Shown one piece after another: positions 3,001 through 12,000 of a stretch of 64,000 nucleotides of DNA (the stretch's first letter is position 1; every line of letters starts with the position of its first letter). The DNA is from an uncultured Alphaproteobacteria bacterium (GTDB taxonomy: Bacteria > Pseudomonadota > Alphaproteobacteria > Rs-D84). The stretch covers positions 120,427 through 184,426 of the forward strand of contig CALXOX010000001.1 in the NCBI GenBank assembly GCA_944390125.1. The letters run 5' to 3'. The position numbers are program-made.

Positions 3001-6000
3001 CACCTTTCAAATTTAGTTCCGCTTTTGAATTAGGCTTTAAATAATCGGTGGACGTATCATAACCTTCTGGCGCAGGTTCTTTAGAATTGATAGTTTTATT
3101 AGTTTCTGAACTATACCAATCTGCACGTGTTGAAATCGCACCACCTGTAACTGTAGAAGAATTATTCACAAACACAGCGTTCTCGACATTAGTTTTTGAA
3201 GCACTACCAGCAAATATAGCACCGCCACCATCAACACTTGTATTTAAGTTGTGATTATCATAGCCGTCATCAGCTATTTCACCGGTTACCATATTTCCAT
3301 CAAACAACGTTTGAGAAATATTTATTTCCATATCCCCATAATTTGCAATTGCCCCGGCACCTGCAATTGCCTCATTACCTGAAAATTCTGTACCAACAAT
3401 GACAGCCGCGCCCTTACCTGTACCTTTGTCGTTATAGCCCGAATATAAAGCGCCGCCCACCAAAGCAGAATTATTGGAAAAAGAACTATTTTCAATACGA
3501 ATCTGTCCCTTTGAACCTATTGCACCGCCATACCCTTCAGTTTTATTGCGTGCAAAAGATGTATTTTCAACAGTCAGCTTTGCATCAATGTCATTGTAAA
3601 CAGCACCACCTTCTACCACAGCGGAATTTTCTGCAAACTTACCTTCTATGTCCATAATTCCTTCGTTATAAATGGCACCACCTTTAACATCAGCCACATT
3701 TTGTACGAACACAGAGCCGTCTAAATCTGTTACAGCACCTTTATCAAATATGGCGATTGCCCCGCCAACATTTGCCGCCTCGTTTCGTGAGAACGATGAA
3801 GAATCTATCTTCAGAGTAGAATGCATATCTGGCCGTTCTGGATCTTGCCAAACTATTATTGCCCCACCACCATGTGTTGCCTCTGTACTTGTCGCTTTAT
3901 TTCCTGTGAAACTTGCATTATCCCCAATTTCTAAATTCCCATATTCTAATCCGATAGCACCGCCCAACCCAGCAACATTACCTTGGAATAAAGCGGCATC
4001 TCCAATAGTTATATTTGTATCATCGGAAGCAACATCTCCATCAGCTAATTTTATGTATAACGCACCCGCTCCCCAAGCTTTATCTGTTGCTTTATTATCA
4101 ACAAATTGAACGCCATTTCCAATTTTGAAACCGTTCAAAGCTTTAATTACACCACCGGCAGAAACCTGTGTCTCATTATTTCTAAACAACGTTCCATCAG
4201 CCACCGATACATTTGGTGTATTATAATTGATAGTTATGGCACCACCGCGCGTACTATCTGAGTTTACAAAATTTTCGACTATACCGCTATACTCTTGACC
4301 ATCGGCCGCCATATTATCTGCGAAAGCCGGCAAAATTGCCAAAGCCGGTAAAACAGAACAAATCTTTAACAAGTCTGTTAAATGCTTGTATTTAGACATG
4401 CAATCTCCTTTTTGTGAGCAAAGTTTGTTTTCACGGCATACAAATAGCGATTAAATTCTTTATTTTTAGAAACGAACCCCTAAAAAATATGCCGCCAATC
4501 CATGTGGATATGGCGGTCGGGGAGTTAAGAAAATCAACCAAATCGTGACCCCGCCAGTCTTTGGGTTGCCCTTGTTTTATAACTGACGGCTCCCCGACCT
4601 AAGCGGGGGTATTCAAGGATAATAAAAGGCGCAGAAAGCGCCGCATACTATTCCTTGTGCGGATTACGACATAACACATGCCGGATTTGGTAAGGGTTTT
4701 CTTACGACCCCGAAGCCACATCCCTGTGGATTCGAGAGATATTATAAAATGTAAACGTGTTGAAATCAAAGAAAAAAATTGATTGCAAAACGAAAAAGCA
4801 GAATATATAATAGTGCGCACATTGGGGCATAGTTTAACGGTAGAACTCCGGACTCTGACTCCGTCAGTGTTGGTTCGAATCCAGCTGCCCCAACCAAGAT
4901 TGACAACCGTTCAGTTCCATCAGGATGTTGAACGGTTTTCTTATTGAATATACTAATTTTTTATTCTTCAATTCGCAGTTCGAAAGTAGCAGGTTCAAAA
5001 GTGCGTGTTTTTGTTCTACTTTCGAACTTTTGAACAGATCCGACGCGTGTGATGCCACAGATAATAACGATTCAACTGTTGTTATAAAGTCGTCATCTGC
5101 CTTGGAATGTGCTTCTAAACGCACGCCTACATCATACAATTCTTTCTCTATATCATTCTTTTTATCGGCGTATTCTTCTTGTGTAATACTGCCGGTCAGT
5201 AAAAAATCTAACAGGCGACTTCTTTTGGACTTTAGGGCATCTTGTTTTTTACGCAGATTGTCTATCTCTGCCAGCGCATAGGCATTTTCCGCCTGTGATA
5301 TATTGGTCAGACACTGTACCACTTCCTGCATAATATCGCGTGGAAAAGAGAGTTTATTCAAAATTTCATCCTGAATCTGCTGCAACAAATCGTTTTCATT
5401 AACCGCTGGTTGTGTACAATTACCCTTAAAATGTGAACAAGATAGATATGTATAGGTCTTGCCACTGGGCTTTGTCTTTGTGTCGCTGGTAATCGCACAC
5501 CCACAATCAGCACATTTTATCAGACCGCGAAACACATACGGCTTTTCTGCATATTTAAATCTGGTACGATTCTTGCTATTCATTATCGCCTGACACTTGT
5601 CAAACAATGTCTTATCAATTAATGGTTGATAAATATGTGGATAAAGCGCACCTTTAACGTTCATCATTCCATAATAAAAAGGATTATTTAATATATTAAA
5701 TACCGCGGCCTTGGTAATAGGCTTCCCACTGATTTTATTTGTCAGCCCCCAGGCGGCGGCATTTTTAACCAGTTCACCAATCGTATATAAGCCAGAGGCA
5801 TATTCTTCAAATAACCGTTTAATCCCCATGGCGCGTTCTGGGTCAACAACTATGATCGGCTTGTTATTGTCGTCGCGTCTGTTCAGATAGCCCAGCGGTG
5901 CTTGACTTTGCCAGATGCCTTGTTTGGTGTTATAGTCAATACTGCGTTTTACATTATCACGCAAATTACCGACATAGGTTTTTGCGGCAAATACACCCAA

Positions 6001-9000: not shown

Positions 9001-12000
9001 ATTGCAATTATGATTTTCTTTTTCATTTTGTTTCCTTTTGGTTTCCTCCAAGTAGCTCAAAAACAATTACTGGTATGATTAGTATCAGCCCAATATAAAA
9101 CAATACTTCCATATATGGCTCAGGTTTCTTGCCAGGTTTTATTAAGATTTTCATCACAATTCCCCATAGCACAAGAAACAATAATACAATAAGCCAATCC
9201 ATTTTTTCTCCTATCATTTTTTATTATTTATATTTTTTAATCTGGTATTCTAATAGTCATATATCTGTTCTATATCCGTTTGCAGATTTTTTAATAATAA
9301 GAGAATCACAAACTATCATGGAACGTGTTTTTATTATTCCAAATTCTTTGGAGAATTCATACTTTGACATCCGGCAGGTATATCAAACAAAAACTCATAT
9401 GCAAAGCAACCACTCCATGCAACAGTTTCTGAAAAATCTTTATTGCTTGTGGTGTTATCATTGTTCATGAATTATACCTTATGATTGTTTTTTGACTTTC
9501 TATAGCCAATGATAGTCAAGACAATGCCAACACCAATACCTCCGAAATAACGTCCAACAGCCAATGGGTCTGTTGTTATAACCAACGCGAAAAAGCTAAG
9601 TATAGTTAAAGCAATTCCACAATAATACATTATATGTTTTTTCATATCTATCCCCTTGCAAGTATAGAAAAAAGACCGTCAACAGGAATGACGGTCAGGG
9701 AGTTGATAAATCAGTTTGCGATTGATTCCGTGGCTTTCGGGTTACCCCTGTTGTATAACCAACAGCTCCCCGACCATAACAGTCAGGGACATAACGGTGC
9801 GATGCACCATTATATCAAGATAACGATGCGACATCGCACCGCGCAAACTAGGCTTATCACAGCCCTGAAACCAATTCCCATTGGCTTCAAATATAGTATA
9901 CAAATAAAAAGATAAAAAACAAATAAATTAATTGGCTTTATTGGGTACAGGGTGGGCATTTTATAAGTTACGCCGAACCATCCTTTTTTTTATTTTAGCC
10001 CCCGTATATGTAAATATACAACCATATATATTGACGTCTTATCATAATATTGATATAATTTGTTTAGTAGAAACAATGTGTAATCCCCAATTTACAGATG
10101 CGTCGACGCATCTGTAAATTGGGGGATAATTTTTAATTTAGCCTCTGTTGCATTCAGAAAATCAACACATTATAAAATTTTTTTAATATTTATGCAAAGG
10201 TCTGCATTGTTTATTATAAAATCCGCCCATTCCATTGACTGCCACGTTTCTTTCGTGAAAATAGGTATTCAGATGAAATTATCGCGGAATTCGCATAAGC
10301 ATTGCCTAAGCTTCCTGGTTTTAACTGTTTCATAGTATATTTTGCAACACGCCATTCTGTGCCCGGCGTTATTTCCTGTAAATAGGGATTTTTGGGTACG
10401 GGGGTACGCTTTGCATGCTGTGTTACTTTATTAAATGCACGTTTCCAACACAATAAAGAACGCGAAGAATCTTTTATTAAAATGTGCATATGATATTCGC
10501 CTTTATCGTTAATTTCACCAAAACCTATAAAAGGAATATGATAACGATACCAATTACGCCCCAATATTTCACGTTGAACGCGACTCATAAAAAATAATAA
10601 ACGTTTCTCAAGAACTGTTATTGTACGAGCCCTGTGGTTGCAATCCCACTGTAAAGTTAAATGATATGTGGGTGCAAATGCTTGTACGTATTCAAATAAA
10701 TCTGTATATATTTTATTTTGATTAAGCATAGTTTTACTCCTGTTGCAATAATTTGTTAATAGGTATTCCTATTATTTAATTGTTTATAGTTTGATTTCGT
10801 TTAGCATACACTTGCAATAAGGGCTGGGTGCATGACTAATGTACCTGTCCCCCCCATACAAATTGAAAAGGGGATGACGCCGGCATTATCAGAGAAAAAT
10901 ATCCCCCTATACCTCCTTGATCTGTTTTTGCTGTTTTGCAATATCTGCAAGAATCTTGAAAAAAGACACCAAACGTCCTGCAGCGTCGTCTGCCTCGGTC
11001 ATTGATAACTGTTCTGAATACAGTTTTTGAATTTTCAAAGATAGTTGCTTTTGTATTTGCATACCCCAAGTAAAAGGGGGATTTTTATACTGGTAAAATA
11101 AAATATTAAGAGTATATTACAGCACAATAAAATCCCCATACAGCTGAAAGATATACTTTTATCATTAAATAATAAGGGTATGAAAAATGATTAAAGTTCC
11201 GATTCTATTTCAAGCAATTTCTTTTTTTGTTCACTTGTGAGAGAATTGGATCTTCGGGCTTTAATAATACTGGCGTGTGATAACGGATTGTTCAATATTC
11301 CAATATATCGCGCATATAAGTTTTCTGGTGTCCCAGTGTAGGAAATATCCTTTTTGACTTTTTTCATTATATTAATCCAGGTCATTTTGGGGTATTTCGC
11401 TTTATATTTTTCTGCGGTTTTAACCAACACGACACCCGCACAACTAAGCCATTTTTCTGGTTGCCCTAGCTTTTTAATTTTTGATCTATCCATAAAGCCA
11501 GTAAATTTCAATTTAATTGCCATTTGTCTTATAAGTTCACGAGTGGCAGGATCTAAATCAGTCGGTCTTTCCAACCCGTATTTCGCATACAACGCTTTCT
11601 CTCTGTCAACTAAACAGCTATCTCTTGTGCTACGCCCGATACGCGGATTTACCTTTGTAACTCCATCAATAAAAAGATCTGGTAAAGGTGTGTATAAGAT
11701 ACCATCTTTCTTTGGTCTTTTACTCATAATTGCTCTCTTTTTTGCTACTAGGAGGTCATAATAGAATGTTTTAAGTAAAAAACAAATTTCTGACATTAAA
11801 GTTATTTTTATTAATCCCATTTAGGTAAAGGACTAATTTTCCAATAAAGATATATCAATTGTTTTCTGAACTAATGAAATAATTTCTAATTTTTCCATCA
11901 AATAACCAGTCTGGCATTTTTAACGAACCATTATCTTTGGCTAGTTTAACAGCAGGATGGTTGGCAAGCACTAACCTAATCAATCTAACTGATTTATATG

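Follow-up and report, generated by a model that had tools for sequence, protein, structure and literature searches.

The tRNA-Gln(CUG) gene of an uncultured gut alphaproteobacterium close to Candidatus Enterousia carries at its 3′ end an integrated element of 8,565 bp. The insertion appears to be due to a large serine recombinase and splits the gene for this very enzyme. The element was studied in a stretch of 64,000 nucleotides of contig CALXOX010000001.1 (hereafter the window), in which it occupies positions 4900..13464. The recombinase gene is best read as a genuine split gene, the ending of which was detached by integration: in the integrated form the open reading frame (ORF) continues into the antisense strand of the tRNA, a native ending is encoded at the other extremity of the island, and relatives of the enzyme terminate in the same manner within other tRNA genes. 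This family-wide targeting of the tRNA CCA end, together with a divided integrase gene, is the most interesting aspect of the locus. The sequence comparisons given below provide good support for the island and its ends, for the integrase and for the AbiL-type cargo, and we put the probability of this description at about 0.85. A preliminary description of the window had reported a mobile island at tRNA-Gln with a large serine recombinase and a two-gene module of an ATPase and a partner, predicted to serve in defence, and this is borne out by empty sites, Pfam and PADLOC. Because the domain, PADLOC and coupling results agree, the original observation can be regarded as real, save for the RloB label given to the partner and the extent given to the island.

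The ends of the element were established by empty-site comparison, together with a contrast in GC content. Same-species contigs (n = 23) were retrieved via an exact match to the DUF5662 protein encoded at 13542-14060; about 14 of them have an empty site, two carry the island of the window and two carry other recombinase islands, and one contig (L083), at 99.98-100% identity, comes from the strain of the window itself. In two empty-site strains, L085 and L087, window positions 1-4899 are matched at 99.2-99.5% identity and positions 13465-23000 at 97.6-98.6%; the left-flank match to L085 stops precisely at 4899, and the two flank matches abut at the neighbouring bases 9923 and 9924. Since these matches meet base to base, the element is exactly 4900-13464. 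The suspicion that the empty contigs might belong to other species with a coincidental breakpoint is contradicted by the flank identity of 97.6-99.5%. Alignment of the empty site with both junctions, a check for attL and attR that the preliminary description had proposed, recovered the same 9-bp identity block, CAACCAAGA, on either side: the attL core (4891..4899) consists of the terminal six bases of tRNA-Gln(CUG), CAACCA, plus AGA, and the attR core (13456..13464) marks the right junction. The island has a GC content of 33.4% compared with 40.2% outside, which is below every equal-sized outside stretch (84 of 84 outside windows of 8.5 kb fall at 38.1-41.9%). Thus, the earlier remark that the DNA is markedly AT-richer holds for the island as a whole, but not for the recombinase gene, which has a GC content of 40.6%.

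Originally, a defence island of about 5 kb (4823-9840) had been proposed, with core genome beyond it. GC does climb to about 39% near 9500-10000, and the stretch 9685-9775 resembles, in a junction-like manner, the region upstream of the tRNA (repeat D5). However, this repeat is a second copy of a small RNA (sRNA)-like gene and no junction, which also disposes of the 40-nt repeat 4560-4599/9736-9775 as an island boundary. Low GC persists to about 14000, and the empty-site strains lack all of 4900-13464, so that the 5-kb extent is refuted and retains virtually no credence. The nearest genomes (Candidatus Enterousia and other uncultured alphaproteobacterial metagenome-assembled genomes, with a DUF1015 protein 86-92% identical) are different species with rearranged neighbourhoods, from which the boundaries were not settled. 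In some of them (L003-L013) the tRNA has the opposite orientation and an inversion had been suspected; none is needed, because the same-species contigs show the arrangement of the window to be native.

The target is a complete tRNA-Gln(CUG) gene with an encoded CCA (4823..4896, plus strand; ARAGORN; Rfam tRNA 62.9 bits), which is wholly host-derived and identical in sequence in L085 and L087. As the preliminary description had noted, the recombinase gene (4864..6369, minus strand) lies on the opposite strand and stops within the tRNA 3′ end: it starts with ATG at 6369, its TGA stop at 4864-4866 lies within the tRNA, and the two genes overlap by 33 nt. Its product, 501 aa in the integrated form, was identified by Pfam and PHROG. 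It has the three domains of a large serine recombinase, namely Resolvase (PF00239, E 1e-15, covering residues 16-164 of a 514-aa ORF), Recombinase (PF07508, 2.6e-10) and Zn_ribbon_recom (PF13408, 6.5e-10), and matches the PHROG integrase family phrog_95 (E 9e-67). The catalytic residues R8 and S10, plus V9, are invariant in 24 members of the recombinase family. An identical protein is present on other metagenome contigs, the island itself occurs in the samples ERZ28614775 and ERZ28614923, and the similarity to XisF, CcrB and CcrC in NCBIfam is weak, far under every equivalog cut-off.

When reverse-complemented, the tRNA sequence of the CCA, acceptor stem and T-arm gives the final codons of the recombinase gene, TGG TTG GGG CAG CTG GAT TCG AAC CAA CAC TGA. 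The CCA is thus read antisense as Trp492, followed by LGQLDSNQH and the stop, all of it (W492-H501) encoded by the tRNA; the reading frame terminates within the tRNA because the attachment site falls inside the recombinase ORF. A detached 3′ segment of the gene, situated at the other end of the island, was recognised as an open and conserved frame (13327..13455, minus strand), encoding the native ending of 43 residues, TIVNELRTDYYDDIINL...RI and a stop. After S-W-L this frame stays open for 42 more codons, TIVNELRTDYYDDIINLAPELQKVNNITTNLNVLRNYNTIRI, and rejoining both ends of the island at codon L493 computes to an ORF of 535 aa, compared with 501 aa in the integrated form. The far-end segment is also found in L089, L088 and L123, which makes four independent elements including that of the window, and an undisrupted relative of 525 aa in L088 ends with WLTIVNELRTTHYEDI.... 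The junction sequence of attP contains …CTATCGTCAACCAAGATTGACAACCGTTC…, and the rebuilt attP, TCGTCAACCAAGATTGACAA, forms an imperfect palindrome, TnGTCAA-N6-TTGACnA, centred on CCA^AGA. In the AlphaFold2 model of a homologue (P0015), the native ending forms three helices (pLDDT 75-83), and long paired helices (344-448) lie C-terminal to the zinc ribbon. The 7-kb contig of this homologue was considered as an excised circle; it is linear, lies beside an autotransporter gene and is uninformative.

The same architecture recurs throughout the family. Among 8,000 scored candidates, 1,887 relatives of the recombinase were found at E ≤ 1e-20, and Trp492 is invariant in alignments of 24 and of 34 family members. 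What follows this tryptophan falls into distinct patterns in the top 120 proteins: 61-63 carry the translated signature of a tRNA T-loop (D-S/L-N), 26 stop within five residues, mostly after LGD, the start of the acceptor-stem translation, and 18-19 have the native ending W-x-x-h-h-D-x-L-R-T followed by Y/F-x-D/E-I/V. The recombinase ORF terminates in a convergent tRNA gene at 42 of 80 metagenome loci, which span 39-98% recombinase identity. These 42 targets are tRNA-Asn (16), Gln-CTG (10), Glu (5), Arg (4), Lys (2), His (2), Gln-TTG (2) and Pro (1), and the CCA is read in frame as TGG in 36 of them. Viral contigs show the same in-frame overlap for tRNA-Arg and tRNA-Pro, and an overlap with tRNA-Gln(TTG) as well, though there the frame differs or the overlap lies further downstream; within 10 kb, no far end of an island was found on these contigs. 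As far as these sequences go, entry of the recombinase ORF into a tRNA is the dominant architecture in a broad clade of recombinases whose targets include many tRNA species. A member in a Spirosoma chromosome, with ArdC, RadC and HTH_17 genes as neighbours, keeps the native ending without a tRNA, which suggests that this ending is the ancestral state.

Based on these observations, a large serine recombinase would have joined an attP located within its own gene, in the 3′ part, to a chromosomal attB made up of the tRNA acceptor stem and T-arm and the downstream terminator. Strand exchange would take place within CAACCA, probably in or beside the CCA, because this is the only sequence common to all the tRNA targets of the family, and the tRNA would stay intact because the exchange hits its final bases. 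The recombinase ORF would then enter the tRNA antisense, swapping its native ending for one encoded by the tRNA, and excision would restore the 535-aa protein. The short identity between attP and attB (the 9-bp core) and the base-precise insertion fit what is expected of a serine integrase. The classical model of a duplicated tRNA fragment is excluded, as no displaced tRNA 3′ half that could serve as attR was found in the 64-kb window in searches at ≤3 and then ≤12 mismatches; apart from the gene itself, the 34-nt 3′ half is matched best by tRNA-Pro, at 12 mismatches. Because the tRNA fragment is duplicated nowhere in the window, the mechanism is not that of a classical tyrosine integrase, and no Phage_integrase match (Pfam) was obtained among the island ORFs.

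The ORF entering the tRNA might, on the other hand, be a harmless by-product, with a native ending that has no function and is conserved merely as the translation of an attP half-site. This view has to be taken seriously, even if it is not the one that we favour. Endings encoded by the tRNA are 2-27 residues long, and the majority of the family gets by with them. The native ending also diverges past about 17 residues between the window and the sister element L089, its distal half being different despite 98%-identical recombinases (over the 948 bp covered), so that the conservation of the ending motif could partly reflect a constraint on attP DNA and not on the protein. The usual half-site of a serine recombinase is 20-25 bp, and the first ~9 codons of the ending match this typical length. 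Nevertheless, the conserved motif R-T-x-Y/F-Y/F-x-D/E-I/V-h-x-L reaches about 54 nt from the centre, past the usual half-site; its substitutions are protein-like (Y/F, I/V, D/E); and the frame stays open over 31-51 codons in AT-rich DNA. In addition, AlphaFold2 renders the native ending as ordered helices, and chromosomal homologues without a tRNA retain it.

If the ending does have a function, a wider and more tentative proposal can be made, which we consider possible though somewhat doubtful. A large clade of serine integrases would have specialised on the universal CCA end of tRNAs, with attP built into the gene at the invariant Trp codon TGG. Integration would then act as a switch that removes the helical ending and leaves the 3′ end of the gene antisense to a strongly transcribed tRNA, and the integrated and excised enzymes would differ in activity, directionality or expression. 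Such a switch would place the control of directionality or stability in the att site itself and not in a separate factor. The family-wide rule, namely that the recombinase gene ends in a convergent tRNA with the CCA read as Trp, is testable. Should it hold, many serine integrases would gain predicted attB sites at conserved tRNA ends, which would help island finding and genome engineering in uncultured gut bacteria; the chemistry of tyrosine recombinases alone would no longer explain the preference of islands for tRNA genes; and the swap of endings would offer a simple experimental handle on the control of direction.

In genomic-island reviews and surveys, tRNA genes are regarded as the territory of tyrosine integrases and as avoided by serine integrases. 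The remark in the preliminary description that a serine recombinase at a tRNA target is uncommon agrees with the TIGER paper (2020), in which 14 of 297 serine-integrase islands were at tRNA or tmRNA genes; according to its authors, such use 'has not been reported previously' and needs experimental proof, and their discussion asks why serine integrases avoid tRNA genes. Among tycheposon-like elements, 27 of 937 have a large serine recombinase, and a large 2022 survey of these enzymes makes no mention of tRNA. We could not find, in open-access papers, a description of an integrase ORF spanning attP at a CCA codon. Like phiC31, Bxb1, A118, SCCmec CcrB and XisF, the element described here has a three-domain enzyme, a short junction identity in place of long direct repeats, and an imperfect-palindrome attP. 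Unlike in phiC31-type systems, however, insertion takes place at the CCA end of a tRNA gene and not in a protein-coding gene, and attP lies inside the recombinase ORF, so that integration swaps the C-terminal ending. The Dehalococcoides ssrA islands (DsiB, CcrB-like) likewise combine a variable cargo with a serine recombinase gene beside attL, where a small stable RNA gene has its 3′ end, and occur in tandem; they differ in having a tmRNA target and a second small recombinase, DsiA, and we have seen no report of an ORF crossing their att site. In phiRSM, too, a serine-family enzyme places a small element at a tRNA 3′ end (tRNA-Ser), but this enzyme is resolvase-sized and without the Recombinase and zinc-ribbon domains, both of which are present here. 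Islander-class tyrosine islands share with the present element a working tRNA and a tRNA-proximal integrase gene; here, in contrast, there is no tyrosine integrase and no duplicated tRNA fragment, and only six tRNA nucleotides fall in the core. In SSV1, attP lies inside the integrase gene, and integration divides the gene. Compared with this type of splitting, the last 43 codons alone are detached here, and the integrated enzyme therefore keeps all its domains.

Insertion at this position is expected to affect the transcription of the tRNA as well. A promoter-like site for the tRNA, TTGCAA-17-TATAAT (4783..4811, plus strand; consensus scan, 10/12 matches), is host DNA and unchanged in the empty-site strains. 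The original terminator hairpin, AATGCCCCTGCGGCATTTTTATTTTT (13465..13497, plus strand), adjoins the tRNA in those strains, so that insertion would strip the tRNA of its terminator by shifting this hairpin 8.6 kb away. Directly 3′ of the tRNA, antisense to the recombinase gene, the element contributes a hairpin with a U-rich tract behind it (4902..4940, plus strand; RNA fold), with a fold energy of −17.3 kcal/mol and a z-score of −3.6 that was equalled by none of 200 shuffles; the native terminator is comparable (−16.8 kcal/mol in L085). The hairpin of the element is thus a candidate replacement for the displaced terminator. The promoter-like site of the tRNA would now fire toward the 3′ end of the recombinase gene, and this could dampen recombinase expression in the integrated state.

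Comparison with the sister element in L089 points to a conserved backbone with two exchangeable cargo slots. The L089 sequence covers 948 bp of the recombinase gene, over which the identity is 98%, and the element shares a block 87% identical to window 8926-11525. In slot 1 it holds an ORF of 1,259 aa instead of the AbiLi/AbiLii pair, and in slot 2 a PIN_8/PIN_12 protein (PIN_8 E 1e-52) instead of a 460-aa ORF. From this comparison the backbone is taken to comprise the recombinase, small membrane-protein ORFs, an sRNA-Xcc1-like gene, a palindrome, a replication-protein-like gene and the ending segment. An integration/replication backbone with exchangeable defence-type cargo is likewise found in P4-like satellites, pipolins and tycheposons, although their backbone genes are unrelated to those of the element here. 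The slots thus offer candidates for defence functions, namely the 460-aa family, the 1,259-aa ORF and the PIN_8 protein. The 460-aa ORF of slot 2 (11855..13237, minus strand) had no match in Pfam, PADLOC, PHROGs, NCBIfam or a PDB profile search, and has 30 unannotated homologue clusters.

Slot 1 contains an AbiLi-like ABC/AAA_21 ATPase of 396 aa (7141..8331, minus strand; PADLOC AbiLi, PDLC02335, E 1.5e-69; Pfam AAA_21, E 4e-29) and an AbiLii-like protein of 247 aa (6395..7138, minus strand; PADLOC AbiLii, PDLC02337). The ATPase has a Walker A motif (GPNASGKS) and a Walker B motif (LLIADELE), and its next-best PADLOC match is AriA. The two genes are translationally coupled, the TGA stop of AbiLi lying 2 nt before the ATG of AbiLii, with a Shine-Dalgarno sequence, AAGGAGG, within the terminal codons of the upstream gene. 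An AAA_21/ABC ATPase followed by a smaller partner in a two-gene operon is likewise typical of lactococcal AbiL, PARIS AriA/AriB and the OLD family, and by homology the pair is predicted to be an abortive-infection-type anti-phage pair of the ATPase-plus-Toprim-like-nuclease class. The AbiLii-like family is very small (4 clusters among 5.8 billion proteins), with Pfam domains in none of the four clusters; E14-G15 and D65-E-D67 are invariant in five homologues, although E14 and D65xD67 are only suggestive of Toprim-like residues.

The remaining genes belong largely to the backbone. Two small membrane-protein ORFs on the minus strand (8589..9217; hydropathy), of 64 aa (9023-9217, two hydrophobic 19-mers) and 145 aa (8589-9026, one), overlap via ATGA, and 8926-9217 falls in the block shared with L089, which starts at 8926. 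A further ORF of 57 aa with two hydrophobic segments (9472..9645, minus strand; hydropathy) is kept in L089; the two coupled membrane proteins and the additional small hydrophobic ORF of the preliminary description are therefore all found again. Next to them lies the sRNA-Xcc1-like gene with its own terminator hairpin (9685..9775, minus strand; Rfam RF02221, 39.5 bits against a gathering score of 53, with E 1.9e-5 when 601 nt were searched), which is conserved in L089, L088 and L003. A second, chromosomal copy of about 90 nt (4507-4599, minus strand; 42.6 bits) is located between the autotransporter gene and tRNA-Gln; both copies are under the 53-bit threshold for membership of sRNA-Xcc1. In an alignment of eight copies the overall shape, the terminator and the closing stem GGTCGGGGAG/CTCCCCGACC are conserved, and the copies form two subfamilies, one chromosomal and one island-borne. 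Between the sRNA-like and the replication-protein-like genes, a perfect 20+20 palindrome of 40 bp, CCCCAATTTACAGATGCGTC/GACGCATCTGTAAATTGGGG (10085..10124; inverted repeat I7, 100% complementary), is 92.5% conserved in L089 and may be a (bidirectional) terminator or a replication origin. The following ORF of 171 aa (10214..10729, minus strand) is an HUH-type replication-initiator-like gene, with weak Pfam and PHROG matches (phrog_3584, E 3e-3) and an H-M-H motif seen by eye; its counterpart in L088 matches REP_ORF2-G2P at 4e-5. An ORF of 209 aa (11191..11820, minus strand) is partly backbone, as the homology block with L089 reaches 11525, and had no family match in Pfam, PADLOC, PHROGs or NCBIfam.

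The replication-like gene raises the question of whether the element is a small temperate filamentous or single-stranded DNA phage, or a satellite, in which the Rep-like and membrane ORFs would be genes for replication and for coat or morphogenesis. Besides the weak REP_ORF2-G2P and PHROG initiator matches, the three or four very small hydrophobic ORFs and the size of 8.6 kb would suit such a phage; the filamentous phage phiRSM enters a tRNA via a serine recombinase, and relatives of the present recombinase occur on IMG/VR viral contigs. However, no match to a Zot/pI-type morphogenesis ATPase, a coat protein or another virion family was obtained among the island ORFs (Pfam, PHROGs), the replication-protein matches are all below curated cut-offs, and the phiRSM enzyme is a small serine recombinase. 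A phage nature is therefore rather unlikely. Primase, helicase, PolB and capsid-hijacking genes were not detected either (Pfam, PHROGs).

Several observations weigh against the description given here. The exact 29-mer of the attP junction, or an excised circle, was found neither in the JGI metagenomes nor in IMG/VR, none of the island ORFs was recognised as a recombination directionality factor, and the exact dinucleotide of the exchange is one that we infer; the divergence of the distal half of the native ending, set out above, points the same way. As to the cargo, the AbiLii match is weak (E 4.3e-7, 28.7 bits), and the structure model of this protein is poor in the N-terminal domain, where a Toprim fold would be sought. 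Pfam RloB does not match it even at E ≤ 1, so that of the coupled ATPase and RloB-like pair announced by the preliminary description the coupling, the AAA_21 ATPase and the AbiLi assignment stand, and AbiLii-like replaces RloB-like as the supported label. For the 171-aa ORF, the REP_ORF2-G2P match (E 6e-4) reaches 20.5 bits against a cut-off of 27.8. Moreover, in a 99.6%-identical copy of the island (L001, 8043-9229), AbiLi is split into ORFs of 242 and 139 aa, likely by a frameshift that inactivates the defence pair.

Together with the strain carrying a broken AbiLi, the lack of an attP junction in the two public collections and of a recognised directionality factor might indicate that the window copy is a fixed, immobile remnant. 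This is improbable, since the copy retains an intact recombinase ORF along with intact att cores at both ends and an intact far-end segment for the ending, and since near-identical strains differ in what the site contains, the junctions being precise and the occupants of three kinds. With an empty site and three occupants in one species, the locus provides a base-precise natural example of such integration. In a different species (L123), a recombinase 58% identical to that of the window overlaps tRNA-Gln(CTG) in the same neighbourhood, and the element has unrelated cargo and the core CAACCA. L088 (1-7400) contains a composite island in which the undisrupted recombinase with its native ending lies mid-island, at an attP-type junction whose core is CAACCAGTT; ahead of the recombinase gene come genes from the far end of another element (an ORF of 181 aa and a PIN_8 gene), and a different ending variant is found at the outer right junction, at tRNA-Gln. 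Such an arrangement suggests tandem or nested integration.

Some strains (L084, 9770-9940; L086, 9600-9940; L089-L092) carry one or two tandem units of 171 bp just past tRNA-Gln, each of which ends with a near-perfect copy of the attachment site, comprising the final 15 tRNA bases, AGA and the terminator. Because each unit ends in such a copy, these strains hold two or three attB-like sites; the island of L089 occupies the first, leaving a spare one. In L005 (CALXWX010000001.1, 3025-3064), tRNA-Gln ends after its first 40 nt (…GGACTCTGACTCC) and is followed by unrelated DNA with GNAT-like and S8-peptidase-like ORFs and no recombinase nearby; an intact tRNA-Gln was not found within the 21 kb available. 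This break falls just where the recombinase stop lies in the window, but it is not a junction at the CCA end and was rejected as a crossover site.

Between tRNA-Gln and the chromosomal sRNA-like gene, a promoter-like TTGATT-17-TATAAT (4741-4769) and a terminator-like hairpin (4628-4645), both on the minus strand, bracket about 100 nt that may represent a further small transcript. The left flank of the window (1-4399) contains two tandem autotransporter genes with Pmp repeats on the minus strand, the left one running past the window edge. In this flank the identity between strains falls from 99% to 77-90% and the gene varies between 907 and 1,046 aa, compared with 98-99% identity in the right flank; it looks like a fast-evolving surface-protein locus beside an integration hot spot. 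On the other side, the DUF1015 protein (15883-17121) is 71-83% identical to many Bacteroidales proteins (Alistipes, Rikenellaceae, Muribaculaceae), nearly matching the 86-92% seen with the Enterousia-like alphaproteobacteria, which points to gene transfer across gut phyla.

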